This document shows, one piece after another, positions 6 to 51,460 of a stretch of 64,000 nt of DNA (position 1 is its first letter; each line of letters begins with the position of its first letter). The DNA is from Acidobacteriota bacterium (GTDB lineage: Bacteria; Acidobacteriota; UBA6911; RPQK01; JAJDTT01), in NCBI GenBank assembly GCA_965116695.1, contig OZ220706.1, forward strand, positions 706,415 through 770,414, given 5' to 3'. The notes beneath the pieces are model-generated. The model was not told the DNA's origin. It saw nothing but the letters and a program-made list of their open reading frames with translations, and made no database searches. The position numbers were made by a program, and so were the translations under genes.

Positions 6-2786
6 GTGCTGGCGTTGATCTGGAGCGCCGCGCCTCTCGCCGCCGAAGAAAAGGTCTGGACGACAGACTCCTTCCTCGACTTCGCGGACGGGAGCTTCAG
101 CGACGGGGGAGTCAACACCTACGTCACCGCTCAAGGAGAGGTGGTCCTCATCAAGTTGCTGGACCTGAATCAGGACGGACGCGTCGACATCATTTTCCCC
201 AACGACCACGATCCCCACGAGCGGGCGGACCTGTTCATCTACTGGGGGGGAGGCGAGGGATACTCGGCCCAGCGCCGCAGCCGCCTGCCCACCAACGGGG
301 GCCATGACGGCGCCATCGCCGATCTGGACGGGGATGGCAATGCCGAGTTGATCGTGGCCAACAACTTCAACGGGACCCGCACCGACCTGGAATCGTTCAT
401 CTACCGCGGCGCCAAGGGAGGTCCCAAGGCCACCGGCCGCAGCGGCCTTCCCACGCGGGGCGCCCGCGCGGTGGCCGTGAAGGATCTGAACCGGGACGGA
501 CACCAGGACATCGTCTTCGCCAACAGCGGATTGGACTACCACGTGACGGTGGACCCTCACAATGAGTCCTTCATCTACTGGGGATCTTCGGACGGCTTTT
601 CCGCCGAACGGCGGCAGGTCCTGCGGACCGTGAACGGCCGGGACGTGACGGTGGCCGACCTGGACCGGGACGGGTACCTGGACCTGGTCTTCGCCAACGA
701 AGGAAACACGGACGCGGAGGGAGGCGCCCTCCTCTACTGGGGTACGGCGGACGGAGACTACACCCGCCGCAAGGCGGTCCATCTTCCCGGCGACCGCTCC
801 TCGGCGGTCGAGGCCGCCGATCTCAACGGGGACGGCTTTCCGGAGATCGTCCTGGCCAATGCCTACCGGCTCAAGACCCGCGAGATGGGCATGTACAACA
901 TCGTGGATTCGGTGAGTGTGCCCTCGTTCATCTATTGGGGATCGGCCAACGGCTATTCGGTCGATTCAAGGACGTTGCTGCCCACGGTGGGAGCGTCCGA
1001 CGTCGCCGCGGGAGACCTGAACCGGGACGGCCACCCCGACCTGGTCTTCGCCAACAAGTCCGGACTGTCGTCCTTCATCTACTGGGGAGCTCCGGATGGT
1101 TATCGCTCCCATCGGCGGACATCGATTCCCACGCTGGCGCCTACTCGCTGCCTGGTGGAGGACCTGGACGAGGACGGTTACCCCGAACTGGTCTTCTCGC
1201 AGCAAGGCGGGCAGCCTCACGGGAAACCCCCTGCGTACGTCTATTGGGGCAGCCCGGACGGCTACTCGCCCGAGTGGCGGACCGAGCTGCCGACGTTCGA
1301 GGCTACCGGGGTCCAGGCGGGAGACCTGGACGGAGACGGCAGCAAGGACCTGGTCTTCGTCCATGCCGCCGATACCACCCACGGCATCCCGGCTTACATC
1401 TACTGGGGCGGACCCAAGGGGCGATTCGAGCCGTCTCGCCGGCAATTGCTGCCCACAGGCAACGGATACTGTTCCAGCGCAGACATCAACCGGGACGGCC
1501 ATGTGGATCTCCTGTTTCCTGGCGTCTACGGGGAGAACCCGGGTCCGACCATCTACTGGGGATCGGGTTCCGGGTACTCCGGGTCCAATCGGACCGTTCT
1601 AGCGACCGGCAACAGCTTTTCTTCCCGGCTCGCCGACTTCAACCGGGACGGTTACCTGGACGCCGTCTTCACCCAGTGGCGCCCGGGTACCGAGGCCACC
1701 AGCCTCTACTGGGGCGGCCCGGAGGGATTCTCCAACGGCAACCGCTTCATCTTCCGGATCGGCAGCATTCGGGAGCACACCATCGGCGACCTCAATCGTG
1801 ACGGTTGGATCGATGTGATCTTCAGCGGGACCCTCAACAAGGTGGTGGTCTATTGGAACAGTCCGCTGGGATTCGACAATGAGCGCAAGTCCGAATTGCC
1901 TTCTCGGGTTTCGGTTGGCGTGGAGGTCGCCGATCTGGATGGAAACGGCTTTCTGGACGTGATTGCCTCCAACCTCTACGACCGGGATCCGGCGCCGGGC
2001 AAACCCCGGTCCTTCGGCGGCTCCGCAGAGGGGGACACCTTCATCTACTGGGGCGGTTCGAAAGGCTACTCTGAATCGAACCGGGCCATCCTGCCTTCGG
2101 TGGGAAACTCTTCCGCCGCGGTGGCCGACCTGAACGGGAACGGGTTCCTGGACCTGGTCCTGAGCAGCTACCACGCTGGCTATACGCGCAGCCACCCCTC
2201 CAGGATCTACTGGAACGGTCCCTCCGGGTTCGACCCTTCGCGCAAAATGGAGATTCCCAGCAACTCCGCTTCGGGGGTCCTCGCCAACGACTTCGACCTG
2301 GACGGCCACGTGGACATCCTGTTCGCCTGCCACTCCAAGCAGGGAAACCACCGGAACGACGCCTTCCTCTACTGGGGCGGACCGGAGGGTTTCTCCACCG
2401 AGCGCCGGACTTCCCTGCCGGTCCTGGGGCCCCACCACCTTGCCTCCGATCCGGGCCACGCCTATGATCGGGGCCATCGTTACGACTACATTTCTCCGCC
2501 GTTCGACGCCGGTTCCGTGGAGCGTTTGGGAACCATCTCCTGGGAGGGGGAGACCCCCTTCCAATCCGGTCTGGAATTCCAGGTGCGCTGGGCCGCCACA
2601 CGGGAGGGGCTGGAGTCAGCCTCATGGATGGGACCGGCCGGCTTGGAGAGCTACTACAAGCAGTCCGGCTCCCAGCTACCGGACCCCGGCGAGGGCACCC
2701 GTTGGATCCAATACAAGACCAGCCTCCTCAGTCCCGGCGCAGCCAATTCCCCGGTCCTGGACTCGGTCTCCATCAGTTATCGGTAG
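6..2786 (+). CDS. FG-GAP/VCBS-repeat beta-propeller protein, truncated at 5' end by the window edge (about 14 repeats of DLNRDGHxDLVFAN...FIYWG)
   Basis: ORF runs to window start; regular repeats with Ca-binding-like D-x-[DN]-x-D-G-x-x-D loops and an aromatic FIYWG motif (FG-GAP-like); no upstream start or signal peptide visible. Confidence 0.75.
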   Translation: MLALIWSAAPLAAEEKVWTTDSFLDFADGSFSDGGVNTYVTAQGEVVLIKLLDLNQDGRVDIIFPNDHDPHERADLFIYWGGGEGYSAQRRSRLPTNGGHDGAIADLDGDGNAELIVANNFNGTRTDLESFIYRGAKGGPKATGRSGLPTRGARAVAVKDLNRDGHQDIVFANSGLDYHVTVDPHNESFIYWGSSDGFSAERRQVLRTVNGRDVTVADLDRDGYLDLVFANEGNTDAEGGALLYWGTADGDYTRRKAVHLPGDRSSAVEAADLNGDGFPEIVLANAYRLKTREMGMYNIVDSVSVPSFIYWGSANGYSVDSRTLLPTVGASDVAAGDLNRDGHPDLVFANKSGLSSFIYWGAPDGYRSHRRTSIPTLAPTRCLVEDLDEDGYPELVFSQQGGQPHGKPPAYVYWGSPDGYSPEWRTELPTFEATGVQAGDLDGDGSKDLVFVHAADTTHGIPAYIYWGGPKGRFEPSRRQLLPTGNGYCSSADINRDGHVDLLFPGVYGENPGPTIYWGSGSGYSGSNRTVLATGNSFSSRLADFNRDGYLDAVFTQWRPGTEATSLYWGGPEGFSNGNRFIFRIGSIREHTIGDLNRDGWIDVIFSGTLNKVVVYWNSPLGFDNERKSELPSRVSVGVEVADLDGNGFLDVIASNLYDRDPAPGKPRSFGGSAEGDTFIYWGGSKGYSESNRAILPSVGNSSAAVADLNGNGFLDLVLSSYHAGYTRSHPSRIYWNGPSGFDPSRKMEIPSNSASGVLANDFDLDGHVDILFACHSKQGNHRNDAFLYWGGPEGFSTERRTSLPVLGPHHLASDPGHAYDRGHRYDYISPPFDAGSVERLGTISWEGETPFQSGLEFQVRWAATREGLESASWMGPAGLESYYKQSGSQLPDPGEGTRWIQYKTSLLSPGAANSPVLDSVSISYR

Positions 2787-2810
2787 GAGGGGGGACTTGT
2801 AGTCCCCCTC
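2785..2810 (+). repeat. G/C-arm hairpin element, TTTCCT-loop family: AGGAGGGGGGAC-ttgtag-TCCCCCTC, followed by a pyrimidine-rich tail
   Basis: Perfect G6AC/GTC6 inverted repeat immediately after the stop of the FG-GAP gene; one of 8 dispersed copies. Confidence 0.7.
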
Positions 2811-2876: not shown

Positions 2877-2902
2877 GGGGGGACAAGGATGTCCCCCCTC
2901 CT
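2877..2902 (-). repeat. G/C-arm hairpin element (inverted copy): GGGGGGAC-aaggat-GTCCCCCCTCCT
   Basis: Same family in opposite orientation, 66 bp from the copy at 2785; lies 55 bp upstream of the permease start. Confidence 0.7.
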
Positions 2903-2956: not shown

Positions 2957-4270
2957 ATGAAAAAGATCGCTGAATTCTTCAAGTTCGAGCAGGAGAACAC
3001 GAACTGGCGGACCGAGATCACCGGAGGCGCCACCACGTTCATGACCATGGCCTACATCGTGGTCGTGAACCCCGCCATACTGTCCGATGCCCTGGGCAAG
3101 GAGATGCTCGGCGAGCTGTTGTTCGCCACCTGCGCGGCCGCCGCCCTCGCCACGCTCCTGATGGGCCTCCTGGCCAACTACCCTTTCGCCCTGGCCCCCG
3201 GAATGGGACTCAACGCCTTTTTCGCCTACACCATCGTCCTGGGCATGGGAGTGGATTGGAAGCTGGCCCTGGGCGTGGTCCTGGCTTCCGGGCTGCTGTT
3301 TCTGCTGTTGACCGTCTTGCGGGTCCGGGAGGCGATCATCAACGCGGTTCCGGACACCCTGAAAAGAGCGGTGGCGGCCGGGATCGGTCTCTTCATCGCG
3401 TTCATCGGCCTGAAGAACGCGGGCCTCATCGTCGACAATCAGGCCACACTGGTGAGCCTGGGCGAGGTCCGTTCCTGGTCCGTCGGATTGGCCCTTGTAG
3501 GGCTGCTGGCGATCGGCGTGATGATGGCGCGCGGAATTCGCGGCGCGATCCTGCTGGGAATGATGGGCGTGACCCTGCTGGCCATGATCTTCGGGGCAGC
3601 GCCGTGGCCAACCGGTCTGGTCAGCATGCCGGTCTGGCCGGTCAATCTCTTCGGCGAAGCCGTACGTCACCTGCCCCAGACCCTGAACGTGGCGTTCATC
3701 GAGGTGATCCTGGCCCTGCTCTTCGTGGACCTCTTCGACACCATGGGGACGCTCTTGGGGTTGTCCGAGAGGTCCGGCTTCCTGGACCAGCGGGGACGGC
3801 TGCCGCGAGCCAACCGCGCGCTGCTCTCCGATTCGGTGGGTACCGTCTGCGGCAGCGTCATCGGGACGTCGACGGTGACCACCTATATCGAGAGCGCCGC
3901 CGGCATCTCTTCCGGTGCCCGGACCGGTTTCTCCAGCGTCGTGGTCAGCGGCCTGTTCGCCGCCGCGTTGTTCCTGACGCCCTTGGTCCAGTCAGTGCCC
4001 ACGTTCGCCGCCGCCCCGGCGCTGGTGGTGACCGGCGTGCTGATGATGGGCGCCGCCGCGCGGATCCGGTGGAATGACGTCTCGGAGGCGGTGCCGGCCT
4101 TCCTCACGCTGATCGCCATCCCGCTGACCTTCAGCATCGCCGACGGACTGGCACTGGGATTCATCTCCTATCCCATCGTCAAGCGGTTGAGCGGACGAGG
4201 CGGCGAGGTGCATTGGCTGGTCGACGTCCTGGCGGTGGTCTTCATCGCCAAGTACGTTTTCATCGGTTAG
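2957..4270 (+). CDS. NCS2-family purine permease (AzgA/PbuG-type adenine/guanine/hypoxanthine transporter)
   Basis: 437 aa; N-terminal motif EITGGATTFMTMAYIVVVNPAILSD typical of AzgA-like NCS2 permeases; multi-TM hydrophobic profile. Confidence 0.85.
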   Translation: MKKIAEFFKFEQENTNWRTEITGGATTFMTMAYIVVVNPAILSDALGKEMLGELLFATCAAAALATLLMGLLANYPFALAPGMGLNAFFAYTIVLGMGVDWKLALGVVLASGLLFLLLTVLRVREAIINAVPDTLKRAVAAGIGLFIAFIGLKNAGLIVDNQATLVSLGEVRSWSVGLALVGLLAIGVMMARGIRGAILLGMMGVTLLAMIFGAAPWPTGLVSMPVWPVNLFGEAVRHLPQTLNVAFIEVILALLFVDLFDTMGTLLGLSERSGFLDQRGRLPRANRALLSDSVGTVCGSVIGTSTVTTYIESAAGISSGARTGFSSVVVSGLFAAALFLTPLVQSVPTFAAAPALVVTGVLMMGAAARIRWNDVSEAVPAFLTLIAIPLTFSIADGLALGFISYPIVKRLSGRGGEVHWLVDVLAVVFIAKYVFIG

Positions 4271-7200
4271 ATCTCCGTTCCAGCTCCCGGCGGGCGAGGC
4301 GTTTGACCGCTCTCAGATCCAGTTTTCCGGTCCCCAACAGGGGAAGCTGTTCGGTCCTGACGAACCGGTCCCGGCGCGGGATGTAGAGATTGGGCAGCCC
4401 CATCTTGGCGAACCGCTCCATCACCGGTCCGACCCGGATATCGTCGAGCGTGTGCACCACGGCCAGGGCTTCCCCCTTTTTCTCGTCCGGGATTCCGGTG
4501 ACGGCAAAAACCTGCTCTTCCGATTCGGCCGCCTGATGCAGCAACTCCTCCACTCGCCCGTGGGGAACCATCTCGCCGCCGATCTTGGAAAAGCGGGCGA
4601 GCCGATCGGTGATCTTCACGAAGCCGTCCTCGCTCACCAGCCCGATGTCGCCGGTCACGTACCAGCCGTCCCGCATCGCCTTCCGGGTCAGGTCGTCCCG
4701 GCCCAGATAGCCCTTCATCAGATTGGGTCCCTTGACCAGCAACATGCCGGGAGTCCCTGCCGTCAACGGTTCGAAGGTGTCGGGGTCCACCACCCGTACT
4801 GCCACCCCCGGCAGGGGCTGGCCCACGGTTCCCGGCCGCGAACCGGGCTGGAAGAACCCGGGTGCCCGGTAGTCGGGGACACCCACGGAGACGACCGGAG
4901 CGCATTCGGTGGTCCCATAGCCCTCCAGCGGCCGCAAACCGAACTGTTCCTGGAAGGCCACGGCCAGCTTCTCCGGCAGCTTCTCGGCCCCGGTCAACAA
5001 CAGCCGCACCGACCCGAGCTGGGCGGGCGAACAAAGGCGCATGTAGATCCGCAGGAAGGTCGGCGTGGCCATGAGGATGCTCACATGGTAACGCTTTACG
5101 AGCCGGCCTACGGCCGTACCGTCCAGCGGATTGGGATGCAAGGGTAGAGCCAGGCCCTTTCTGGCCGCGAACCAGAAGACCACGTAGCCGAAGGAATGGA
5201 AGAAAGGCAGGATGCCCAGAATCCGGTCGGTCGGTTTCGTCCGGAGTACCTGTTCGACAGCCGCGATGTTGGAATCCAGGTTGAACTGGGTGAGCATCAC
5301 TCCCTTGGGCTCTCCGGTGCTGCCGCTGCTGAAGATGATGGTCATGACGTCGTGGGGACCGGGGACCCGGACGGCGCCGCAGAGCCTTTCCAACCAGCGG
5401 CTGGGGAGAAACAGGGCCGCAAACAGGCTCGTGACCCGTTGTCCGGCACCGATGCCTTCCGCCAGTTCCTCCAGGTACACGAGCCGGACATTTTCGGGAG
5501 GAGTCAGCTCTGCCTTCCGTAGAAAGGTACGGCTCGTGACGACGGTCTTGAGACCCGATTGGCTGACGGCCGATTCCATTCCGTGACGGCCTGCGGTGTA
5601 GTTCAGGTTGACGGTTACCCGGCAGGCCAGCGCTGCGGCAAGGTTCACCAGGGCTGCGGGGACGGTGGGCGGCAGCAGAATCCCCACCCTCTCCTGTTCG
5701 GACCATACTGATCTGAGAGCCCGAGCCAGGGCGACGGCTCCGGTCAGCGCCTTGATGCGGACCAGGTGAGGCCGGCTCTCATCGGCGTAAGCGAGAGCCA
5801 GTGGACGCATCCTGGCCTTGCGGATGAAGGCCCGGTGCAAAGGACGGAAGCCCTCCTGGCGCTGGTTCCATGCCGCGCAGGACAGCTCCTGGACGGCTTG
5901 GCGAATCGTGCTCACGCCGGTCTTCGAAGGCAGAGGAGATCCGAAGGCGCACGTGACCTGGTAAGGGATCTCCCACGGAATCTTGAAAACGAACCGGTTT
6001 CGCTCGTAGCTGAAGATGCTCCCCCAGAGCCGGTCCAGGTAAACGGGGATGATGGGTGCCTTCCGGTTCCGGACGATCCGCTTCAGGCCCCGATTGAAGG
6101 GCAACAAGGTTCCGGTTCGGCTGATCTGTCCCTCGGGAAAGATACAGACCAACTCACCCTGATCCAGGAGTCTTCCGGCATCCCTCAGGGCTCGTAAAAT
6201 CTGTCGCGGTCCCTCTGAAGAAGAAATGGGTATGCACCCCAACGACTTCATAAAAGGCTTGAAGTAAAATCGTTCATAGTACTCTCGATGAACGATAAAT
6301 CGGATCGGACGATCAATCACGGCAAGCAGCAGTCCGAAATCGATTAAGGAGACGTGGTTGGGGACCAGTAGCGCTCCCCCCTTTTCCGGGACGTGTTCCC
6401 GGCCCACGACCCGGAGCCGGTACAGCGAGTGCGTGGCCAGGACCAGCAGCAAACGCAACAGGACGTCGGGAAGCAGGCTGACGGCCCAGACCATACCCGC
6501 CGAGAGCGCCAATGCCGCCACCAGCATGATCGATACCGGGGAGAGCCCCAGCGCGCCCAAGCCCGCCGCTCCCAGCGATCCCGCCGTTATCCCCGCAAAA
6601 ATCCAGACGTTGGCCAGCGCGATGACGGCTCCCCGGTGCTGGTCCGGAGCCCGCCATTGGAGCAGGGAGTTCAGCGGCACGATGATCATGCCGCTGGCTA
6701 TGCCCAGAGCGGCCGAAAAGGCCAGCAGCCCGTAGAACCCGGGCACGACGAGAGCCATCAGCAGGCAGTTCCCCGCCATCAAAACGGCGCCCAGAGGGAT
6801 CACGCCGTACTCGACCCGGCCCCGGGAGACCCGGGCGGTGATCAGGCTGCCGGCGCCGACTCCGAGGCCGAACAGGGCCAGGGGGATTCCGGCATGGGTG
6901 TCGGAAAGGCCCAGGACCGACTTGACGTAGACCAGGATGTCCTGACCCAGGAGGCTCGCGATGGTCCAGTAGACGACCGAGCCGGCCACGGCCAAGTTCA
7001 GAACGCGCTCGTGACGAATGGCTCGCCAAGCGGTGCGGATGGTTTCTCCCAGGTTTCCTTCGGCACGTGCGGCCGGCACCCTGGGAAGCCGCAAGGAGAT
7101 GATGAGACCCGCCACTGCCGTTGGAACCAGGACCGCCGCCGCGGTCCAGGCCGCCTCTCCCGAGAGATCCAGCAGCAGGCCGCCGGATGCCGTTCCCAGG

Positions 7201-7688
7201 ATGATGGCCAGGAAGGTCCAGGTTTCCAGGTGGGCGTTCCCCGCGGTGAGCCGCTCGTGAGGCAGCATCTCGGGCAGGATCCCGTACTTGGCGGGGCTGA
7301 AGAGAGCGCTCTGCAAGCCCATGAGACCCAGGATCACCAGTGGAAACAGCGTCGAGCCGGGAGCCGCGTAGAGGCAGAGGGCCGCACCGCCCATGAGCGT
7401 GACTTCCGCCAGCTTCATGGCAATGATGACGGTCCTCTTGCTGACCCGGTCGGCCACGAGGCCCGCCGGGAGGGAGAAGACCATGAGGGGGATGGTCAGG
7501 ACGCAGAAGGCGATGGCGGTCTGGAGCTGGGCGGCGGACTGGTATTCGGGTCCTCCGGGCGGCAGGTGCGCCGTGGAGGCTTTGATCGCGAGGAAGGTGA
7601 CGATCAACTTCCAGGCGTTGTCGTTGAAGGCTCCGAAGAACTGGGCGATCAGGAGGAACTTCAGACCGGCCGTCGTGTTCTTTGCCAT
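4260..7688 (-). CDS. aas: Fusion of lysophospholipid transporter LplT (MFS), 2-acyl-GPE acyltransferase and acyl-ACP synthetase (Aas)
   Basis: 1142 aa. N-terminal 12-TM MFS region; central PlsC-type acyltransferase H(X)4D motif (PNHVSLIDFG); C-terminal AMP-binding domain (FSSGSTGEPKGV ... YGTTE ... GDIG). E. coli has lplT and aas as adjacent separate genes. Confidence 0.85.
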   Translation of the reverse strand: MAKNTTAGLKFLLIAQFFGAFNDNAWKLIVTFLAIKASTAHLPPGGPEYQSAAQLQTAIAFCVLTIPLMVFSLPAGLVADRVSKRTVIIAMKLAEVTLMGGAALCLYAAPGSTLFPLVILGLMGLQSALFSPAKYGILPEMLPHERLTAGNAHLETWTFLAIILGTASGGLLLDLSGEAAWTAAAVLVPTAVAGLIISLRLPRVPAARAEGNLGETIRTAWRAIRHERVLNLAVAGSVVYWTIASLLGQDILVYVKSVLGLSDTHAGIPLALFGLGVGAGSLITARVSRGRVEYGVIPLGAVLMAGNCLLMALVVPGFYGLLAFSAALGIASGMIIVPLNSLLQWRAPDQHRGAVIALANVWIFAGITAGSLGAAGLGALGLSPVSIMLVAALALSAGMVWAVSLLPDVLLRLLLVLATHSLYRLRVVGREHVPEKGGALLVPNHVSLIDFGLLLAVIDRPIRFIVHREYYERFYFKPFMKSLGCIPISSSEGPRQILRALRDAGRLLDQGELVCIFPEGQISRTGTLLPFNRGLKRIVRNRKAPIIPVYLDRLWGSIFSYERNRFVFKIPWEIPYQVTCAFGSPLPSKTGVSTIRQAVQELSCAAWNQRQEGFRPLHRAFIRKARMRPLALAYADESRPHLVRIKALTGAVALARALRSVWSEQERVGILLPPTVPAALVNLAAALACRVTVNLNYTAGRHGMESAVSQSGLKTVVTSRTFLRKAELTPPENVRLVYLEELAEGIGAGQRVTSLFAALFLPSRWLERLCGAVRVPGPHDVMTIIFSSGSTGEPKGVMLTQFNLDSNIAAVEQVLRTKPTDRILGILPFFHSFGYVVFWFAARKGLALPLHPNPLDGTAVGRLVKRYHVSILMATPTFLRIYMRLCSPAQLGSVRLLLTGAEKLPEKLAVAFQEQFGLRPLEGYGTTECAPVVSVGVPDYRAPGFFQPGSRPGTVGQPLPGVAVRVVDPDTFEPLTAGTPGMLLVKGPNLMKGYLGRDDLTRKAMRDGWYVTGDIGLVSEDGFVKITDRLARFSKIGGEMVPHGRVEELLHQAAESEEQVFAVTGIPDEKKGEALAVVHTLDDIRVGPVMERFAKMGLPNLYIPRRDRFVRTEQLPLLGTGKLDLRAVKRLARRELERRSNR

Positions 7689-7691
7689 GTT

Positions 7692-7717
7692 AGGAGGGGG
7701 GACTTTCCTGTCCCCCC
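7692..7717 (+). repeat. G/C-arm hairpin element AGGAGGGGGGAC-tttcct-GTCCCCCC with T-rich tail
   Basis: Directly abuts the start codon of lplT-aas on the opposite strand. Confidence 0.7.
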
Positions 7718-7746
7718 TTGCTCTTCGTTTTCTAGTTTCACCGGAG

Positions 7747-8006
7747 TCCGGCGCCTGGAAAGGGCGCCGCTCCTGTCCGGCGCCTGGAAAGGACGCCGCT
7801 CCTGTCCGGCGCCTGGAAAGGACGCCGCTCCTATCCGGCGCCTGGAAAGGACGCCGCTCCTGTCCGGCGCCTGGAAAGGACGCCGCTCCTATCCGGCGCC
7901 TGGAAAGGACGCCGCTCCTGTCCGGCGCCTGGAAAGGACGCCGCTCCTATCCGGCGCCTGGAAAGGACGCCGCTCCTGTCCGGCGCCTGGAAAGGGCGCC
8001 GCTCCC
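7747..8006 (-). repeat. Tandem array of about 9 copies of a 29-bp unit TCCGGCGCCTGGAAAGGACGCCGCTCCTR, with a 58-bp higher-order period (alternating G/A)
   Basis: Read directly. Unit length is not a multiple of 3 and the array is intergenic. On the minus strand each unit reads GGAGC-GGCGUC-cuuucca-GGCGCC, a hairpin with a UUUCC loop like the dispersed element family. No spacers, so not CRISPR. Confidence 0.85.
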
Positions 8007-9626: not shown

Positions 9627-10682
9627 TCAGATGATGGCGATGGGACGCAGGGCGAACCCCGCCACCGTGCCCCGGATCTTGTTCACGGTGCAGACGTAGG
9701 TGAACTCGTAGACGCGGTTGCGAGAGAGTTCTTCCAGGGCGTGAAACTCCGCGATGTGGACTCCCTGCTCGATGAGCAGGTAGTTGTGGACCGGCATGAA
9801 GGAGCCGTACTTCTCGCGGTAGGCCTGGTTGTCCGCCGCCGTGGGCTTGTACTCCACGCCGCTGGTGTCTCCGCCGACCATCATGGCCCCCTTCTGCTCC
9901 ACCAGCCAGCGGGCCGAGGCCAGGTTGATGCCGGCCGAATCATGCCGGTCGATGGTTTCGTGATCCGATCCGGCGGTCCCCCAGAATTGCGTCGTTCCGG
10001 TCCGGACCAGAACCACGTCTCCGAACTTCAGCGTGGTGCCCTGCTTCTTGAGAGCCCCCTGAAGGTCGGCTGGAGTGATCTCATAATTGGGGGGCAACAC
10101 GTTCACCCCCTTGTAGGCGGCCACGTCGATCATGACCCCGCGGGCAACGATGGGAGGGATGTTGGTGGCGTCGCACTTGCGAATTCCCCAGTCGCCCGAG
10201 TCCTCCGACTCCTTGAAACCGTTGTACCAGTGGTTGTCCTTCCCCTGGGTGGCGTGGCCCAGCCCGTCGATCTGGGTCGCCACGTTGTCGTTGATGAAGA
10301 GGGCGCAACTGTGCCAGGCGGTCAACGAGGGGTTGTCCTGGATCACCCCGGGGATGTCCTTCTGGCTCTTCACGCCGTCGGGAGACCGGAACATGATGAT
10401 CTCGCCCGGACTGTGCCCGGGCCACTTGTAGGAGGTCCGGTCATAGCTCAGCCCCAGATCGAAGACCCTGCCTTTCCGCACCAGCTTCAGGGCGGCCAGG
10501 CGGGAGGCGTCGGTCATCTCGTTGAGCGCCCCCACCTCGTCATCCTTCCCCCAGACCCAGCCCCAGCCCTTCCCCGCCTGCCACTTCTTGGCGTGTGACG
10601 AGGGCGGCACAACGGCCGCGACCATGACGGCCGCCGCTACAAGCCCGATCAGAACGGTGAGGACGAATGGCTTCTTCTTCAT
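9627..10682 (-). CDS. Cyclase-family protein (kynurenine formamidase-like fold), secreted
   Basis: 351 aa; signal/TM N-terminus; QIDGLGHAT motif resembling the HxGTHxD cyclase/arylformamidase signature. Confidence 0.55.
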   Translation of the reverse strand: MKKKPFVLTVLIGLVAAAVMVAAVVPPSSHAKKWQAGKGWGWVWGKDDEVGALNEMTDASRLAALKLVRKGRVFDLGLSYDRTSYKWPGHSPGEIIMFRSPDGVKSQKDIPGVIQDNPSLTAWHSCALFINDNVATQIDGLGHATQGKDNHWYNGFKESEDSGDWGIRKCDATNIPPIVARGVMIDVAAYKGVNVLPPNYEITPADLQGALKKQGTTLKFGDVVLVRTGTTQFWGTAGSDHETIDRHDSAGINLASARWLVEQKGAMMVGGDTSGVEYKPTAADNQAYREKYGSFMPVHNYLLIEQGVHIAEFHALEELSRNRVYEFTYVCTVNKIRGTVAGFALRPIAII

Positions 10683-10737: not shown

Positions 10738-10765
10738 GGGAGGGGGGACTTTCCTGTCCCCCCTC
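10738..10765 (+). repeat. G/C-arm hairpin element ATTGGGAGGGGGGAC-tttcct-GTCCCCCCTC
   Basis: About 55 bp upstream of the cyclase start, opposite orientation to that gene. Confidence 0.7.
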
Positions 10766-14700: not shown

Positions 14701-14991
14701 CTCTTTGTAGAAGTCTGGGAACGGAAACGCTTCAGTGACGGTTGGCAGGATCAGCATTTCGCCTGTGATATTAACGATCTTTTCTATTTCGAAGGAATCG
14801 CAGAGGATGCCGTGCAAGAATTCACCAATGAAGACGGCTACTCCTACTATGACTTCAATTGGGATCGCGTAAGAGAGCTGCGCAGGGAAGTCGGGTGGTG
14901 GGGAGCAGAAGGCCTCCAGAACCCGGTCATCCGGGCGTGGATCGTGGTGCTCGGTTATTTCATGACCGATCACCGGTATCTGTTTCTATAA
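11794..14991 (+). CDS. Large secreted PSD-family protein (DUF1587/DUF1592/DUF1595/DUF1588/DUF1585-type) with CxxCH motifs
   Basis: About 1065 aa from the ATG at 11794; signal peptide; CVNCH and CTVCH haem-binding-type motifs; immediately followed by its canonical partner, a DUF1552 gene. Confidence 0.65.
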   Translation: MRAIVRTLLSAMAIGIFAGLQLSSEVASAAPRSDRSRSQWVYELQRARAHQRMENTMYASTPSRAGVDVMCPALSDGRLGPPIALDSRRAFLESDARRYTVKADEADETESESALDFFLNHVSGPVVQAKCVNCHVDGGVSGHTRLILHPSSTSDHATLNLAVFENFLADVEDGATLILNKIQGVAHGGGIQVPAGSDAFSNMETFLALLGYGEDASPVLTPETLFDTVTMASPGKTLWRAAIIFGGRIPTQEEREAVDNGTEEDLRKAIRNLMTGPGFHEFLIRASNDQLLTDRNIGWAIDPFGSRFTDLGSLYWAKAEAARDRGHSDPGQDPEFQRWSENVQYGFRRAPLELIAHVVENDLPYTEILTANYIMANPMASEAYGASTQFDESEDGLEFRPSEIASYYRDDDSKVTEFKSGIGTLVLDPGNLWTDYPHAGILNTTMFLKRYPTTPTNRNRARARWTYYHFLGLDIEKSASRTTDPDALADTDNPTLKNPACTVCHSVMDPVAGTFQNYGEEGEYRDEWRGLDSLDNLYKFPEDGSTTPYQPGDTWYRDMRDPGFDGQIAPNADNSLQWLAEQIVADDRFAGAAVKFWWSAVLGVEIATPPEDENDTDFEGMLLASNAQTGYVEDLAEEFRTGIAGGDPYNLKDLLVEIVLSPWFRAESITDDNPVRATALRNAGADRLLTPEELAWKTEAITGYHWGREPSPRRHFTDSNLTDAHQYRLIYGGIDSDGITDRTDDITALMAAVAQSHAIESSCPIVQREFLLFPDEDRRLFDGIDGNVSPISETSGTAVIEGASWAERETNSWTVSLATGPKTVRLGFLNDFYDDETRDDRNLILDEVIVRDLAGSVVEHFQLETLEPADCRGPYWDETAGRLVGYGLWCSLWLDIRVAIPTDGEYRIEVVAFQQAAGDEPAELGIVVESDIETSRGARLIRRKLVELHEKLLGETASIDSPDVKAAFELFVEVWERKRFSDGWQDQHFACDINDLFYFEGIAEDAVQEFTNEDGYSYYDFNWDRVRELRREVGWWGAEGLQNPVIRAWIVVLGYFMTDHRYLFL

Positions 14992-15000
14992 GAGGACGAA

Positions 15001-23097: not shown

Positions 23098-23976
23098 TTT
23101 GCATAATTTCTCCTAAGGGTTTCAGTAAAGCTCCCCCACCGGCCCTGTCCGGCGGACAAGGAGCGGTTTCCAACCGCCGAAACGGAACGGCGGTTCCTAA
23201 CCGCCGATTCTTGGAACATCGGGGATTGCGGCGCACGGGCGATTGGAAATCGCCCCTCCTTTAGAGGAGAAGGGGACGGCTACCTTCTCTACTCGAGTCT
23301 GGTTACCGGTTCGGCAAATGAACGGGCGTTTTCTGCAAATTGGAGGAATATCGGGATTAAGAGGTTGCAGACGTCCATTCTGAACCGCGAATCCGATCAG
23401 CCCTCCAAAGTTGATCCGGATTCCTTACCTTGAAGTATTCACACGATTGACCACGTGCACTCTCAACCTGGGTTGCAGGTGCGGGTGATCAACCTGGATC
23501 ATATCTTCAAGAGCCGGGATCCGAACGAAGCAAGGTTGAGCGGGCGACCCGCATGGCCCGGACTGTGCCCGGGCGATCGGTTCCATCGAACACGCCCCTT
23601 GCCCCGCCAGCATTGCGAGTGATACCGCAATCACCCCGAATACCACCCGACTGTACCAATCAGCCAACATCATCTTTTGTCGCGATTCCATATTCACTCC
23701 CCACTGTTTCGTATTTCTCCTATTGATGGGAATTTGAATCACACAACCTGGAGATTGCTGCCACCAATATCTTGGATGCGCGTCAAGGCGAGATTGCTCA
23801 GTGTCAGAGCAACGAGATTGCCGGCGGCCACGCCGGAGTGCAGAAAAGTTGCCATCGAAACTGTGAGACCTCGAAGGAGTGGATCAGTCTTGAGGCGCTC
23901 GGCCCCAGTATTTCTTACCGGGTGAGCCCTTTCGGGCGAAAAAATCACATCTGTCTAAGGTGAGATTGGAGACGCC

Positions 23977-24807: not shown

Positions 24808-26283
24808 TTATCGGGGACTGGGAAGACGTGAATGGGGGACAAGACTGTCCCCCCTCCTATTCGTCGCAATTCCGTCAGGCGTCCCGAAGCAATAGAGCCG
24901 GCTCTGCGTTCGAATGAACAGACGGCCGCCGGCAATCGCCGGCGTCGCGTACACGTCCTCGTTCAAGTCGTTCGTCTGCAACACCTTCCAGTCCGGCCCG
25001 GGCTTGAGCACGACGGCTTTTCCGGCGTCGCTCACCATGTAGATCTTGCCGTCCCCGGCCACGGGCGAGGCGTAGTAGCCATCGATGGCGCCGCGGAGCC
25101 GGCCCTGCTTGAGGACCTTTCCGCTGGCCGGATCCAACGCCGTCACGATGCCGCCGTTGCGCACCAGGTAGAGCACGCCGCGGTAGAGAATCGGTGAAGC
25201 GACGTCGGGCAGCGACTTCTGATGGCGCCAGAGCAGGTGAGGCTGGGTCACGTTCCCCCGGCCGCCGAGCTGAATCGCCAGGCAGCCGTTCTCGGAGACC
25301 CGGCGGGCCCGGTAGTGCGCCCAGTCCCGTGCGTTCATGGTGCCGTTCTTGTTCCGGTCGTGCATCTCCCAACTGCGGGGCCGCCATTTTTCGGGAACCT
25401 CCTGCTTCGTCAGTTCCGAATCGCCGTTCGCGTCGAAACGTTTGCGCATCTCCTCGAACGGCGGCAACTCCAGGCGAACATCCGGCTCCCCCCCGGGAGC
25501 CCACCCATTGAAGTAGAGCCGGTCGCCATCGATGACCGGGACGGATTTGACCTGGTAGGTCAGTCCGTCGAGCCGCCACAGTTCGCGGCCGTCCGTCGCG
25601 TATCCGGTCATGCGGTACGAGCCGGGGACGATAATTTCGGGACTTCCCTGCCCCAAGTGGTGGACGACGGGCGTCGAGAAGCTATGCACGAAGTCGGGCC
25701 GCGCCTGCTTCCAGAGAATTTCGCCGTCGGCCGCATCCACAGCGATTACGAAAGCGTCGAGGTCCTGGTCGCAGACCTGGATCAGCTTCCCGTCGACCAG
25801 AATCGGGGAGGACCCCATGCCGTGAAAATTGGTGAACGGACCCATGGGCAGCGTCCAGAGCTCGGTTCCGTCCGGACCGTAGGCCACGAGACCGTACCCA
25901 CCGAAGAACGCGTAGACGTTGATCCCATCCGTGACCGGAGTCGGCGCGGCCTCGTCGTTCAGGCGGTGCATCCGCTCGACCCTTCGGGCGGGCGCGGCCC
26001 GGCGCCAGATCTCCTGGCCGGTCGAGCGGTCGAGCGCGATCGTAAGGAGCTGGTCCCCGTCGTGTGCCGTCAGGAAGATTCTGCTCTCCGTCAGGATCGG
26101 CGAGGACTTGCCCGGAGGCAGCGTCGTCTCCCAGTTCACGTTGGACCCGGGTCCGAAGACCACGGGCAGCGGACCCTCTTCAACGACGCCGGTTCCATTC
26201 GGCCCCCTGAACCGGGTCCAGTCCGACGCGATGGCAGCGGAGGTGAAAAGCAGCAATGAGAGGATCGTCTTGCCCATCAGCAT
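24808..26283 (-). CDS. PQQ-like beta-propeller repeat protein with a C-terminal EF-hand-like segment
   Basis: Signal peptide; WTRFRGPNGTGV-type PQQ/BamB-like repeats; DANGDSELTKQE and DRNKNGTMNARD Ca-binding loops. Confidence 0.65.
   Translation of the reverse strand: MLMGKTILSLLLFTSAAIASDWTRFRGPNGTGVVEEGPLPVVFGPGSNVNWETTLPPGKSSPILTESRIFLTAHDGDQLLTIALDRSTGQEIWRRAAPARRVERMHRLNDEAAPTPVTDGINVYAFFGGYGLVAYGPDGTELWTLPMGPFTNFHGMGSSPILVDGKLIQVCDQDLDAFVIAVDAADGEILWKQARPDFVHSFSTPVVHHLGQGSPEIIVPGSYRMTGYATDGRELWRLDGLTYQVKSVPVIDGDRLYFNGWAPGGEPDVRLELPPFEEMRKRFDANGDSELTKQEVPEKWRPRSWEMHDRNKNGTMNARDWAHYRARRVSENGCLAIQLGGRGNVTQPHLLWRHQKSLPDVASPILYRGVLYLVRNGGIVTALDPASGKVLKQGRLRGAIDGYYASPVAGDGKIYMVSDAGKAVVLKPGPDWKVLQTNDLNEDVYATPAIAGGRLFIRTQSRLYCFGTPDGIATNRRGDSLVPHSRLPSPR
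24834..24858 (-). repeat. G/C-arm hairpin element GGGGGAC-aagact-GTCCCCCCTCCT
   Basis: Overlaps the last 14 codons of the PQQ-like gene. Confidence 0.6.
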
Positions 26284-26302
26284 CGCTAAAGCCTACCCGA
26301 TT

Positions 26303-26390
26303 GGAGGGGGGACATTCTTGTCCCCCATTGGGAGCGGCGGCTTTCTTGCCGCCGATTGGGAAGGGCGACTTTCTTGTTGCCCACCAGTGG
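26303..26390 (+). repeat. Array of three consecutive G/C-arm hairpins (loops ATTCTT, TTTCTT, TTTCTT) separated by ATTGGGA(G/A)
   Basis: GGGGGGACattcttGTCCCCC / GGCGGCtttcttGCCGCC / GGCGACtttcttGTTGCCC; begins 20 nt upstream of the PQQ-like gene start. Confidence 0.75.
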
Positions 26391-26614
26391 CCGGGAGCGG
26401 GAGCGATTACGCCGTTTCGGCGAAGGGATTCCGGATTTGCAGTCCGTTTATCCTGAATCCGTGCTGGAGATCCTCCGAATACAGCACCGAGCAATTGGCT
26501 GCCAACGCGGCGCGGCCCCTTGTGTAACACCTGCGGTAGAGTTCGAACGAGTGCATTTGCTTGCAGGGATCGGAAGCGTCGTCAGTGCAGACCAGTACGT
26601 TCGTGGCCAGGAAG

Positions 26615-26839
26615 CTACGGGCGCTCATGAATCTGCTCACGGTCGAATTGCCAGCCTTCCCGGTCGCCTTGGGCTTGATGTGACAGACGAGCCACCTCAG
26701 CGGAAACAACCTCGCGACGCGAATGGTCAGCGAGATCGCTGAGAAAATTCCGTATGGCTTGACTCAAGCTCAACCCCAGAGCAGCAGCCGCTTTTCGAGC
26801 CCGTACAACAATAGCGGCATCTACGGAGAGAGGTAGTTT
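26615..26839 (-). CDS. Small ribbon-helix-helix/antitoxin-like protein
   Basis: MKLPLSVDAAIVVRARKAAAALGLSLSQAIRNFL resembles CopG/ParD-type RHH antitoxins; a possible 73-aa partner ORF overlaps its stop (start about 26628, minus strand) but is unrecognisable. Confidence 0.35.
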   Translation of the reverse strand, partial: KLPLSVDAAIVVRARKAAAALGLSLSQAIRNFLSDLADHSRREVVSAEVARLSHQAQGDREGWQFDREQIHERP

Positions 26840-26900
26840 CATATCAACGCAGGATATTGGTACACGGGTGCTGTGTCGAACGTGGACTGGTCCAGGCCTT

Positions 26901-26968
26901 TCCCCATTTTCTGGTCGTGTCGGGACAACCAGGGATGTAGGGGCGACGTGTGGGTGCCCTCTTTGGTC
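26901..26968. repeat. Half-copy of the 180-bp repeat (left arm only)
   Basis: Aligns to 19322-19390 and 56206-56275. Confidence 0.7.
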
Positions 26969-27131
26969 CTGCGTCATGGCCCCACCCCCGGAGAAGGGCT
27001 AGAATGCTCCTCTGTCGCACTTGGTCCGGCGAGCCACGCCCCGGTCCCGTTACCACGGGAAGTTCGCCACGGAATTATTCCGAGGTCGGATTGCCGAATC
27101 CCAAGGCTCAACACTCCGCGGAGGCACCGTG

Positions 27132-42885: not shown

Positions 42886-43668
42886 TCAGTTGCGGAACGA
42901 GGGGTCCCTCTGGTCCATGAGCCGGACCAGGGCGTCAAATTCCAGTTGGCCCAGGTCGGCGGCGCACTGGGCGAAATCATCCATCTGATCCGCCGACCGC
43001 TGGACGACCGTATCGGACGGGATCACCAGTTTCTGCCGGCAGGCCATGGCGTCGAGCTGGACCTGGCAGGCCCGCTCAAGACGGTAGATGTGCAGGAACG
43101 CCTCGGGGACGGTCTCTCCAACGCTCAGCAGGCCATGATTGCGCAGGATCATGACGTTCGCCGTGCCCAGGTCCTCAGCGAGCTTCTTGCGCTCCTCCAG
43201 AAAAAGCTGGGAGCCTTCGTAGTCGTGGTAGCCGATGTTGTTGTAGAAGCTGGTGGCGTTCATGCTGATGTTCAGGAGTCCGCATTCCAGCGCCGCTACG
43301 GCCATTCCGGCCCGGGTATGGGTGTGGATCACGCAGTGGGCATTCTCGCGGTGTTGGTGAATCGCGCTGTGGATGACGAACCCGGCCGGGTTGAAGGGGT
43401 ATTGGGAGGGCTCCACGAGATTCCCGTCGAGGTCGATTTTGACCAGGCTCGAAGCGGTCATCTCATCATAGCGCAGCCCGTAGGGGTTGATCAGAAAGTG
43501 GTGTTCGGGGCCGGGCACGCGCAGCGAGATATGCCCGTAGATCAGCTCGCACCAGCCGAAGTAGTCCACGATCCGGTAGCACGCCGCAAGCTGGACCCTG
43601 AGGTCCCATTCGACAGCATCGACTTCCCGAGGGACCTCGGTGACTACGGATGCCTGTATCGCCGCCAT
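42886..43668 (-). CDS. Class II aldolase/adducin-family protein (fuculose-phosphate aldolase/ribulose-5-P epimerase-like)
   Basis: GHISLRVPG ... HTHT ... ILRNHGLL pattern; AGGAGG SD sequence 7 nt before the ATG. Confidence 0.75.
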   Translation of the reverse strand: MAAIQASVVTEVPREVDAVEWDLRVQLAACYRIVDYFGWCELIYGHISLRVPGPEHHFLINPYGLRYDEMTASSLVKIDLDGNLVEPSQYPFNPAGFVIHSAIHQHRENAHCVIHTHTRAGMAVAALECGLLNISMNATSFYNNIGYHDYEGSQLFLEERKKLAEDLGTANVMILRNHGLLSVGETVPEAFLHIYRLERACQVQLDAMACRQKLVIPSDTVVQRSADQMDDFAQCAADLGQLEFDALVRLMDQRDPSFRN

Positions 43669-43684: not shown

Positions 43685-43710
43685 AGGAGGGGGACTTTCC
43701 TGTCCCCCCC
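43685..43710 (+). repeat. G/C-arm hairpin element AGGAGGGGGAC-tttcct-GTCCCCCCC with T-rich tail
   Basis: 17 nt upstream of the aldolase start, antisense to it. Confidence 0.7.
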
Positions 43711-43757: not shown

Positions 43758-43812
43758 TCGGCGGCTAGAAAGCCGCCGCTCCCATCCGGCGGCAAGAGAG
43801 CCGCTGCTCCTT
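43758..43812 (-). repeat. Two tandem G/C-arm hairpins in minus orientation (GGCGGC-tttcta-GCCGCC; GGCAGCGGC-tctctt-GCCGCCGG)
   Basis: Read directly; inverted relative to the adjacent element at 43685. Confidence 0.55.
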
Positions 43813-45223: not shown

Positions 45224-46501
45224 CTACCCTGCCAACAAGCTCTTCACCATCGGCACGACCCTGAGGGCCGTCATGCCCGCGATTCCCAGCAGGATGGTGA
45301 CGCCCACAAGGACGAATGCCCGTTCCGGCAGCGACAACGGACGCCGCGCCATGGCGTCCCGGTCGAAGAAGGCCAGCAACGTGGCCAGGACACCCAGAGG
45401 CATCGCCAGCAGGGTCAGGGCCTGGGCCAGGGCGAGAGCCCGGATCTCCAACTGGCTCTTGGCAGCGGAAGCCGACGCGGCCCCTGTGTCCGCCGGCGCC
45501 TCGGACTGGAGAATGGCGACGGCGGTGACCATGCCGATGAGCAGGATGATTCCGGCGATGAGCTTGGTGGTGGAAGAGTTCACCTTCCCCCCCAGGCCCA
45601 GCCCGTCGTTGATCAGGACCCCGCCGACCATGGCGTTGGTCACGAAGCTGGAGAAAGCGGCCGTGCCGAAGCCGACGCAGAAGATGATCCGGGCGTAGGG
45701 TCCGAAGACGCCTTCCAGTTGCATCGCCATGCCGGCAGCGCTGTCCACACGTCCGCCCGGATACAGCACGGCGGCCGCGGTCATCATGATCACGCAGCCG
45801 ATGGCCGTGTAGAGAATGGACGCCAGCACCGTGTCGGTGACGCCGCTGGAGAGATCCTCTTCCTTCCACCCCTTGGCACGGACCAGGTAGGCCTGGAAGA
45901 AGGCCGCCACCATCACGAACGTGGTCGCCACCAGGCCGCCCAACGTGAGCCAGTCGGCGCCCTCCGGAATATTGGGGATGGTCGCGCCCTTCAGGGCGGA
46001 CAACCAGTCGGGGCCGGCCCACAACAGGTTGGCCGCGAAGGCCAGGACCATGAAGACCAGGAAGAAGGTCATCAACCTTTCCAGCAGCAGGTAGATGTTT
46101 CGGAAGCCTGCAAGAAAGACGATGGACACCAGAGTGAAGCCCACCGGCCAGACCAACTTGGGGACGTCTCCAAAGAGCGTGGTCATGGCGGCGGTGACGC
46201 CCAGGTTGTTGCCGAACTGGAAGGTGGCGTTCACCGACGCCAGGGAGAACCCGCAGACCACGGCGAACCACGGTCCCAGCTTCCGGGAGGCCAGTCCCAG
46301 AAAGGTCTCCCGTGAGTAGAGTCCGAATCGTAGGAAGAGGGCGAGAAACCCCGCCATGAGAGCGCCGGCGAGGATGGCCAGCCAGAGCATGGAGTAGCCG
46401 TAGACGGCGCCGGTGCGTGACATGAGCGTGACGCTGCCCGGTCCGATGATACAGGCCCCCACGATGAATGCGGGTCCGATACGTCTCAATCCGACGGCCA
46501 T
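45224..46501 (-). CDS. mntH: NRAMP-family divalent metal (Mn2+/Fe2+) transporter, MntH-like
   Basis: N-terminus IGPAFIVGACIIGPGSVT...GYSMLW aligns with E. coli MntH LGPAFIAAIGYIDPGNF...GYQLLW; about 11 TM segments. Confidence 0.65.
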   Translation of the reverse strand: MAVGLRRIGPAFIVGACIIGPGSVTLMSRTGAVYGYSMLWLAILAGALMAGFLALFLRFGLYSRETFLGLASRKLGPWFAVVCGFSLASVNATFQFGNNLGVTAAMTTLFGDVPKLVWPVGFTLVSIVFLAGFRNIYLLLERLMTFFLVFMVLAFAANLLWAGPDWLSALKGATIPNIPEGADWLTLGGLVATTFVMVAAFFQAYLVRAKGWKEEDLSSGVTDTVLASILYTAIGCVIMMTAAAVLYPGGRVDSAAGMAMQLEGVFGPYARIIFCVGFGTAAFSSFVTNAMVGGVLINDGLGLGGKVNSSTTKLIAGIILLIGMVTAVAILQSEAPADTGAASASAAKSQLEIRALALAQALTLLAMPLGVLATLLAFFDRDAMARRPLSLPERAFVLVGVTILLGIAGMTALRVVPMVKSLLAG

Positions 46502-46525: not shown

Positions 46526-46634
46526 ATTGGGAGCGTTGGTTTTCCTACCCCCGCTGTTCCAACGGGAGCGGGGTTGTCTTACCCCCGCTCTTCCAACAGG
46601 AGCGGGGGTTTTCCTACCCCCGCTCTTCCGAAGG
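46526..46634 (+). repeat. Tandem array of 3 copies of a 34-bp hairpin unit: TTCCAACGGGAGCGGGGG-ttttccta-CCCCCGCTC
   Basis: 9-bp G/C arms with TTTTCCTA or TTGTCTTA loop; intergenic between divergent NRAMP and PSD genes. Confidence 0.8.
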
Positions 46635-46661
46635 AAGCAGGGTCGAAAATGGCACAGGGAA

Positions 46662-46687
46662 GAGGGGGACTAAAAGTCCCCCCTCCT
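46662..46687 (-). repeat. G/C-arm hairpin element GAGGGGGAC-taaaag-TCCCCCCTCCT
   Basis: Minus orientation, 60 bp upstream of PSD module 2. Confidence 0.65.
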
Positions 46688-51322: not shown

Positions 51323-51323
<1 letters not shown>

Positions 51324-51398
51324 GAGCGGCGACATCCTTGTCGCCGATTGGAGAGGCGTCTGGAGCGGCGACATCCTTGTCGCCGATTGGAGAGGCAT
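51323..51398 (+). repeat. Two tandem copies of a 38-bp unit GGAGCGGCGAC-atcctt-GTCGCCGATTGGAGAGGCRTCT
   Basis: Between convergent DUF1501 and B12-rSAM genes; same arm/loop logic as the dispersed hairpin family. Confidence 0.8.
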
Positions 51399-51460
51399 CT
51401 TTCAAGCGCCACATGAGGGGTCGCAGGGACGGCAGTCCCCCAGTCAACTGAAGAATATTT

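Follow-up and report, generated by a model that had tools for sequence, protein, structure and literature searches.

Introduction

In Escherichia coli, repetitive extragenic palindromes (REPs) and bacterial interspersed mosaic elements (BIMEs) are short, GC-rich hairpins that lie outside genes and whose stems have a conserved tetranucleotide at their 5' foot. They occur as single copies, inverted pairs and clusters, and they flank, in inverted orientation, the gene of the Y1/HUH transposase TnpA-REP (RayT/YafM, PDB 4ER8). These traits recur in a family of hairpins with a G-run arm and a C-run arm, copies of which are dispersed through a 64,000-nt stretch of an Acidobacteriota bacterium (contig OZ220706.1, positions 706,415 to 770,414; the whole of this stretch is called the window), and we conclude that the hairpins are very probably a REP family belonging to a RAYT (REP-associated tyrosine transposase) system in an Acidobacteriota lineage. 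At the same time, the resemblance to the E. coli system is not complete. The foot is GGAG instead of GTAG, the stem is a plain G/C helix of 8-9 bp with no bulge, and a TTCC/GGAA tetraloop is conserved across clades; the RAYT, about 200-230 aa long, has a long N-terminal extension and aligns with E. coli RayT only around the catalytic motifs (E ~1e-3); and its hosts belong to Acidobacteriota, Verrucomicrobiota and Nitrospirales instead of Enterobacteria.

The REPIN-RAYT systems of Pseudomonas (Bertels and Rainey 2011, PMC3116915) are similar in having inverted doublets, composite units that are repeated whole, a RAYT gene flanked by its own REPs, and several coexisting REP families, but many of the copies described here are singletons or same-orientation tandems and not strict doublets. 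Moreover, the REP sequence reported here is common to several phyla, unlike REPIN-RAYT systems, which a preprint describes as lineage-specific and mostly vertically inherited (bioRxiv 10.1101/2022.05.22.493013). The GTAG- and CGTC-tagged repeats (Di Nocera et al. 2013, PMC3733652) share stems of 6-9 bp with short loops, dimers joined head-to-head, tail-to-tail or head-to-tail, occasional in-frame insertion into open reading frames (ORFs) and presence in Verrucomicrobia (GTAG-17 to GTAG-20 of Opitutus terrae). The tag variants listed there are GYAG, GYRG, GTRG, GTMG and GTGG, with GGAG not among them, and for Acidobacteria that study gives only transposases associated with terminal inverted repeats and no REPs. 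An acidobacterial Y1 transposase with non-canonical flanking hairpins, dispersed in about 600 copies, is known from the class 3 TnpA-Y1 of Solibacter usitatus (Quentin et al. 2018, PMC6006769). In class 3 the foot is CnGA and the protein motifs are W[TA] and YV..EQ; the RAYT proteins reported here instead have NHVH, WQ and YI(R/Q/L)(E/N)NP, which look like the motifs of class 2 (TnpA-REP).

The CnGA foot means that feet other than GT[AG]G were already known, as was CGTC, and the REP-RAYT kind of system is itself not new. We found no paper in open-access text on this core sequence or on such REPs in Acidobacteria; the family is marked by its variant GGAG foot, its conserved tetraloop and its unusually wide taxonomic spread.

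Results

A family of GGAG-footed hairpins

An earlier note, made from the letters of the window, had listed eight dispersed hairpins, and all eight are present where it placed them, its coordinates taking in a 4-nt AGGA prefix. The exact pattern GGGGGAC-N6-GTCCCCC matches the window, whose G+C content is about 62%, six times (0.00 expected from 100 dinucleotide shuffles), and a relaxed search added two copies with 5-nt loops. Their cores lie at 2789-2808, 2877-2898, 7696-7717, 10742-10763, 24834-24854, 26306-26326, 43689-43710 and 46664-46683, and have the general form GGAG-GGGGGAC(A)-loop-(T)GTCCCCC. The copy flagged in that note, E3, reads TTAGGA-GGGGGGAC-TTTCCT-GTCCCCCC-TTGCTCTTCG. Each element has an orientation: one strand carries (A/G)GGA-GGGGGGAC, a pyrimidine-rich loop, GTCCCCCC and then a T/C-rich tail. 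This strand, the GGAG strand, is the plus strand in five copies (2789, 7696, 10742, 26306 and 43689) and the minus strand in three (2877, 24834 and 46664). The eight copies (G-arm REPs) are as follows.

2785..2808, plus strand: E1, TAGGAG-GGGGGACT-TGT-AGTCCCCC, folding as single-stranded DNA at -8.7 kcal/mol; 4 nt past the stop of an FG-GAP gene (6..2786, plus)
2877..2902, minus strand: E2, on its own strand AGGAG-GGGGGACA-TCCT-TGTCCCCC-TTTT; inverted partner of E1, 68 nt apart, and 58 nt 5' of a permease start (2957, plus)
7692..7717, plus strand: E3, the flagged copy; 7 nt 5' of the ATG of an MFS-acyltransferase-AMP-binding gene (4260..7688, minus)
10738..10763, plus strand: E4; 58 nt 5' of a cyclase start (9627..10682, minus)
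24834..24858, minus strand: E5; in codons 477-484 of a 492-codon PQQ beta-propeller ORF (24808..26283, minus)
26302..26326, plus strand: E6; 24 nt 5' of the start of the PQQ gene
43685..43710, plus strand: E7; 21 nt 5' of a class II aldolase start (42886..43668, minus)
46664..46687, minus strand: E8; about 65 nt 5' of the probable ATG (46748) of a PSCyt1/PSCyt2/PSD1 gene

All of these are short GC-rich palindromes. Loops such as ATTCTT add one A-T pair to the stem, so that the true loop is the tetraloop TTCT or TTCC (GGAA on the other strand), and the element can be written GGAG-GGGGGGACA-TTCC-TGTCCCCC. The (A/G)GGA is fused to the G-run in all window copies, and the two bases ahead of GGA vary, as (T/A)(A/T/G)GGA. 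Folded as single-stranded DNA, the REP hairpins of the window, with stems of 7-10 bp and loops of 3-6 nt, reach -8.7 to -13.5 kcal/mol with z-scores of -2.1 to -4.8. An Rfam scan of the whole window gave no family at the gathering score.

The intergenic DNA of the window also holds sister hairpins, which have other stems with the same foot, loop and tail.

7746..8005, minus strand: tandem array of nine 29-bp sister REPs with no spacers, inverted relative to E3; the unit is CGGCGCC-TGGAAAG-G(G/A)CGCCG-CTCC on the plus strand and GGAG-stem-CTTTCCA-stem on the minus strand
23188..23259, no strand assigned: two sister hairpins, CGGCGGTT-CCT-AACCGCCG and GGGCGATT-GGA-AATCGCCC-CTCC
26331..26383, plus strand: two sister REPs in tandem with E6, GGGAG-CGGCGGC-TTTCTT-GCCGCCG (at 26335, its GCCGCCG arm then followed by ATTGGGA) and the imperfect GGGCGAC-TTTCTT-GTTGCCC
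43759..43782, minus strand: sister REP inverted relative to E7, CGGCGGCT-AGAA-AGCCGCCG-CTCC
46529..46643, plus strand: array of 3.3 sister-REP units of 35 bp adjoining E8, GGGAGC-GGGG(G)T-TTTCCT-ACCCC(C)-GCTCTTCC
51323..51400, plus strand: two tandem sister REPs (hairpins at 51327 and 51366) with a 39-bp period, GGAG-CGGCGACA-TCCT-TGTCGCCG-ATTGGAGAGG, between convergent genes

In total, the 64 kb hold eight G-arm copies, about ten sister copies and the arrays. Together the sister hairpins and the G-arm REPs form BIME/REPIN-like clusters, and the inverted pairs that had been reported (2789/2877, 7696 with the 29-bp array, and 43689 with the 43759 hairpin) are all real. The 7746-8005 array was also considered as a CRISPR array and rejected, its nine head-to-tail 29-bp units having no spacers between them. 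We also counted independently of the search pattern, taking every GC-rich stem that is 7 bp or longer and has a GGAG foot or a CTCC tail: the window has 15 such hairpins, and Markov simulations give 0.97 +/- 0.87. Three of the 15 lie within genes and seem fortuitous.

The same hairpins flank RAYT genes

The hairpins stand beside RAYT genes in the closest relatives of the window. With an E. coli RayT query used only as a lead, tblastn gave matches in three of the at least 115 loci listed by the genome scan described below, each directly beside hairpins, and the hits were then confirmed with Pfam, NCBIfam and PDB. The candidate ORFs match Pfam Y1_Tnp with E values of 1e-8 to 1e-11. One of them scores 83.9 bits (cut-off 80) against the NCBIfam model for REP-associated tyrosine transposases, and the same proteins reach only 29-31 bits against the IS200 model, whose cut-off is 55. 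The sole PDB match is 4ER8, TnpA-REP bound to a REP, and both the HUH (NHVH) and the tyrosine (YIxENP) motifs align with it. The Acidobacteriota protein is 64% identical to one from Verrucomicrobiota, and a protein search returned 836 relatives at E <= 1e-20, from hosts including Acidobacteriota, Kiritimatiellia (among them Pontiella desulfatans), Chthoniobacter and KSB1. For some members of the clade the JGI name is 'REP element-mobilizing transposase RayT'. Many others (P0025, P0026, P0032 and more) carry the JGI name 'type I restriction enzyme R subunit', which looks like a propagated mis-annotation; in locus L006, a RAYT gene adjoins an ORF (5579..6946) that resembles, by eye only, a type I restriction specificity (HsdS) subunit.

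In OZ241897.1, the RAYT gene (L204, 2501-3169) sits inside a group of 11 G-arm REPs spread over 5.7 kb, one of them 87 nt upstream of the gene and one at its 3' end. In JAPOYZ01 a G-arm REP lies at the 3' end of the RAYT gene (L205), and in OZ253580.1 the gene (L027, 2813-3487) lies between three hairpin clusters, each consisting of a G-arm, a CGGCGG-type and a GGGCGAC-type hairpin, stems that are also present in the window. The RAYTs of L027 and L204 are only 65% identical, although in shared genes both of their genomes, OZ253580.1 and OZ241897.1, match the window at about 87-94% identity. This divergence is close to that of the cross-phylum pair, so close relatives carry different RAYT lineages. 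Other transposase genes stand directly beside RAYT genes, one of the IS110 family (L027, 3928-4875) and one of DDE_Tnp_1 type (L205, 667-1806), suggesting that REPtrons are hot spots for insertion. Immediately 3' of the RAYT gene of L204, three tandem ORFs of 101 aa with no Pfam match (3827-5059, period about 463 nt) interleave with G-arm REPs.

We also fetched 80 metagenomic RAYT loci by protein alignment alone, independently of any DNA pattern. GC-rich hairpins of at least 7 bp were found within 250 nt on both sides of the gene in 57 of the 68 loci that had both flanks. The upstream side has the arrangement GGAG-stem-TTCC-stem in 50 of 75, and the downstream side stem-GGAA-stem-CTCC in 59 of 73; with a GGAG foot on one side and a CTCC tail on the other, the flanks of the RAYT gene are largely inverted, which is the REPtron layout. 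Of 245 hairpins no farther than 250 nt from the gene, 187 (76%) had the foot or tail 0-1 nt from the stem; among those 800 nt or more away the count was 22 of 88. The commonest loops near RAYT genes were GGAA (50), TTCC (45), TCCA (18) and TGGA (17). The earlier suggestion of a REP/BIME-like element is thus strongly supported: RAYT genes have these hairpins on their flanks both in the nearest relatives and in dozens of metagenomic loci, and the clusters, arrays and inverted pairs add further support.

The stems, on the other hand, vary with the clade of the RAYT (GGGGGACA, CGGGGACT, GGCGGACA, AGCGGGTT, CACGGACA, GTGGGCG, GCGCCAC and others), with foot and loop retained. Of 29 RAYTs that share at least 57% identity with the query, 16 have the G-arm stem next to them; none of 51 more distant RAYTs does. 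Such co-variation between the stem of a REP and its RAYT has been described for REPtrons (PMC6006769). A further reading is that the palindromes are double-stranded operators for a dimeric global transcription factor, which the perfect 8-bp inverted repeat, its short spacer and its nearness to promoters and start codons might suggest. Contrary to what an operator would do, sister elements retain loop and foot but differ throughout the stem; the spacer is 5-6 nt and variable (3-6 nt with the extended stem), spacer and one flank are conserved asymmetrically, and tandem arrays and after-stop positions are common. We therefore give an operator practically no chance of being the right explanation.

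Distribution and turnover among relatives

The earlier note had held that confinement to the 64-kb window would speak against a dispersed family, and the elements are not so confined. A scan of one genome per species with the pattern GGAGGGGGGAC-N5-6-GTCCCCC found at least 165 copies in at least 115 loci of other genomes; among the matches listed are several Acidobacteriota chromosomes, Opitutales, Akkermansiaceae, other Verrucomicrobiota, Nitrospirales and a few other lineages. Across those genomes the 24-mer GGA-GGGGGGAC-(A/T)TTC(C/T)T-GTCCCCC recurs with its loop included. The pattern left the loop free, yet in the at least 165 copies it is nearly always ATTCCT, ATTCTT or TTTCCT, and hairpins near the listed copies repeat the stem-GGAA-stem-CTCC theme. 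Among 2.9 million viral contigs there were seven isolated DNA matches and no RAYT relative, and hence no sign of a phage vehicle.

Genes of the window are 87-94% identical to those of the Acidobacteriota metagenome-assembled genomes OZ241897.1, OZ253580.1 and CATOST01, and JAPOYZ01 (labelled Aminicenantes) is equally close. The orthologous intergenic regions of these relatives differ in the presence, copy number and loop sequence of REPs. The spacer that holds E1 and E2 has G-arm REPs in the window and in loci L112 and L091, with differing loops and with three copies instead of two in L091. E3 is present in the ortholog L023 and absent from L091; E4 is retained in the window, L023 and L020 with three different loops, and homology between the genomes stops just beyond it. 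E5 is absent from the L033 ortholog, in which E6 is degenerate and the two extra sister hairpins beside it are missing. Moreover, two G-arm REPs and a GGGGGTAGGAAAACCCCC-ACTCC hairpin make up a composite unit of about 170 nt that OZ241897.1 has at least nine times, with unrelated flanks. The differences in presence and copy number and the at least nine-fold composite lend indirect support to mobilisation in trans.

The PQQ ORF reads through E5, and its ortholog in L033, which has no REP, differs at the C-terminus; a REP insertion therefore appears to have rewritten the last ~18 codons of the gene (24808-24861). RAYT ORFs in L204 (3145-3165) and L205 (2685-2704) also run through a REP.

At the position of E3, L091 has a GTAG-footed hairpin instead, of the same type as the one GTAG-footed doublet in the window, an inverted pair (19365-19385 and 19421-19441: GTAG-GGGCACCC-CTTGT-GGGTGCCC-TCTTCG ... 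GAAGA-GGGCGACC-ACAAG-GGTCGCCC-CTAC). Its canonical GTAG foot and REPIN-like arrangement make this doublet a second REP family in the same genome.

Placement relative to genes

Six of the eight window copies (2877, 7696, 10742, 26306, 43689 and 46664) lie 7-65 nt 5' of a start codon, in an orientation that places the GGAG strand antisense to the downstream gene, as had been reported; the two others are 2789, 4 nt past a stop, and 24834, within the last 16 codons of an ORF. For a larger sample we took 136 copies from G+C-rich related loci among the scan matches listed, with genes called by a crude ORF picker based on third-position G+C (GC3), so that gene contexts are approximate. With these calls, 117 of the 136 copies are extragenic, in DNA that is about 90% coding. 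After-stop relations outnumber before-start ones (80 vs 45), and convergent spacers outnumber divergent ones (36 vs 19). The claimed enrichment 5' of gene starts is thus reversed in this sample, which favours 3' ends, and the window's pattern is a feature of its small number of copies. Upstream copies are more often antisense (30 vs 15, p = 0.036, uncorrected), a weak and unexplained bias whose p value should not be taken at face value, because many copies belong to repeated composite units and are not independent.

A preference for convergent spacers and after-stop positions, together with an RNA hairpin as stable as about -20 kcal/mol, would be expected if the elements were mainly intrinsic, possibly bidirectional, terminators or insulators between neighbouring genes. 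E1, 4 nt past a stop, and E5, between convergent genes, are placed accordingly, and REPs of E. coli are known to cause some termination (cited in PMC6006769). The terminator-like look that had been noted is weak in the window: under a lenient rule (at least 5 T in 8 bases), only the copies at 2876 and 7694 pass, neither strand of the other six has a T-rich tail, and terminator-like sites are no more frequent than in shuffles. A hairpin followed by a U-tract at a 3' end is not what is seen, six of the eight copies being upstream of starts, and in the same-strand spacers of E3 and E7 the transcript would read the hairpin and then CUCCU, not a U-tract. Termination, moreover, needs neither a conserved loop and foot, nor arrays of up to nine units, nor clustering around RAYT genes, and copies are gained and lost between close relatives. 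We regard termination or insulation as a very improbable main role.

The window copies, taken by themselves, could also be read as riboregulators in the 5' untranslated region (5'-UTR), in which CCUCCU pairs with the Shine-Dalgarno (SD) sequence or mimics the anti-SD and controls translation downstream. In favour of such control are the six copies 7-65 nt 5' of a start with the CCUCC strand in mRNA sense, and the 30 to 15 antisense bias of upstream copies. For the aldolase, the earlier note had proposed an SD-sequestering switch, and the CCUCCU and AGGAGG of that leader are indeed complementary. In both the minimum free energy and the centroid folds, on the other hand, the leader forms the REP stem and leaves the GGAGGA SD single-stranded; a conserved alternative pairing that occludes the SD was not found, with the SD unpaired and the element absent from orthologous leaders. 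The other five leaders have no SD to sequester, as had been stated. E3, the copy upstream of lplT-aas, is missing from the ortholog in L091, and copies are extra or missing at other orthologs (the PQQ gene); the genes next to the copies have unrelated functions, copies elsewhere lie mostly at 3' ends, no Rfam family matches, and the CTCC merely complements the conserved GGAG foot. Leader fold, missing orthologous copies, unrelated genes and 3'-end preference all argue against riboregulation, which we consider very unlikely.

A probable REP family of a RAYT system

The G/C-arm REPs are ordinary selfish or commensal DNA and not a gene-specific RNA switch; window folds, terminator scans, ortholog comparison and placement counts gave no evidence of a new mechanism of gene regulation. 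By analogy with E. coli TnpA-REP/RayT and with TnpA of IS200/IS605, we propose that a chromosomal and probably single-copy Y1/HUH tyrosine transposase binds the hairpin folded in single-stranded DNA. It would recognise the hairpin by the GGAG tetranucleotide at its 5' foot, and probably also by the conserved TTCC tetraloop, and would cut and rejoin single-stranded DNA, whereby REPs or REP doublets would be copied, moved and homogenised in trans. Copies would survive only where tolerated, between genes or at the extreme ends of ORFs, which would account for the extragenic placement. Any effects on neighbouring genes, such as a barrier at 3' ends, weak termination or a 5'-UTR structure carrying CCUCC, would be by-products of a very stable RNA hairpin, not the reason for which the family exists. 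The catalytic steps, the use of single-stranded DNA and the choice of substrate strand are taken here from homology.

Several observations weigh against assigning the hairpins to a REP-RAYT system. There is no RAYT gene within the 64-kb window, and the link to RAYTs rests on close relatives. A weak tblastn match at 26478-26609, beside E6, was examined as a possible RAYT remnant and proved spurious (BLASTP E = 2, no Y1_Tnp domain). The second RAYT tested scores 73.9 bits, just under the NCBIfam equivalog cut-off of 80, and cleavage and mobility are presumed for this RAYT clade. The foot is GGAG, unlike the GT[AG]G of canonical REPs, which these hairpins do not carry, and the two bases ahead of GGAG vary; GTAGGAG does occur in some Acidobacteriota copies, though not in most. 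In Pseudomonas, the REP consensus GTAGGAGC... also has GGAG immediately ahead of the stem. No clean pairs of empty and filled insertion sites could be recovered at orthologous loci, because the intergenic DNA is too diverged. Finally, the antisense bias of upstream copies (30 to 15) is not predicted by a purely neutral model, and the window copies are unusually concentrated just 5' of start codons.

A bolder reading, which we put forward tentatively and hold to be somewhat less probable than its opposite, is that REPs include a third large superfamily besides those tagged GTAG and CGTC, made up of GGAG-footed hairpins with a conserved TTCC/GGAA tetraloop and linked to a single RAYT clade with at least 836 members. 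The near-identical 24-nt REP and its RAYT would then have moved horizontally among at least three phyla, and the bias of the foot towards the gene would reflect selection on AGGAGG/CCUCC in transcripts. If true, this would contradict the view of REP-RAYT systems as lineage-specific and vertically inherited.

For REP biology, the family adds a well-populated REP-RAYT clade in Acidobacteriota and the Planctomycetes-Verrucomicrobia-Chlamydiae (PVC) phyla, one that screens based on GT[AG]G would miss, and for evolution it offers a test case of one REP sequence common to several phyla. For annotation, the hairpins and the short tandem arrays, including the 29-bp array, should be entered as REP/BIME repeats and not as terminators, riboswitch-like leaders or CRISPR-like arrays, and care is needed with ORFs extended through REPs, such as the C-terminus of the PQQ gene and the start at 46520. 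The latter is a TTG at which the longest ORF of the PSCyt1/PSCyt2/PSD1 gene opens, and translation from it would include the REP array and E8; the true start is likely the ATG at 46748, which is followed by a segment resembling a signal peptide.

Other features of the window

Pfam matches and a GC3-based ORF map identified the genes next to the elements, among them the following.

2957..4270, plus strand: xanthine/uracil permease
45224..46501, minus strand: Nramp gene

Adjoining the E6 cluster on the minus strand (26407-26977) is a pair of ORFs resembling a toxin-antitoxin module, the upstream one DUF6364/RelB-like (26615..26977) and the downstream one (26407..26709) with a PIN/VapC-like 'FLATNVLV' motif. 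Three patches of the window (14001-16000, 22001-24000 and 36001-38000) have a lower G+C content of 0.54-0.56, compared with about 0.62-0.65 elsewhere, and a weaker GC3 signal in their ORFs, and may be recently acquired DNA.

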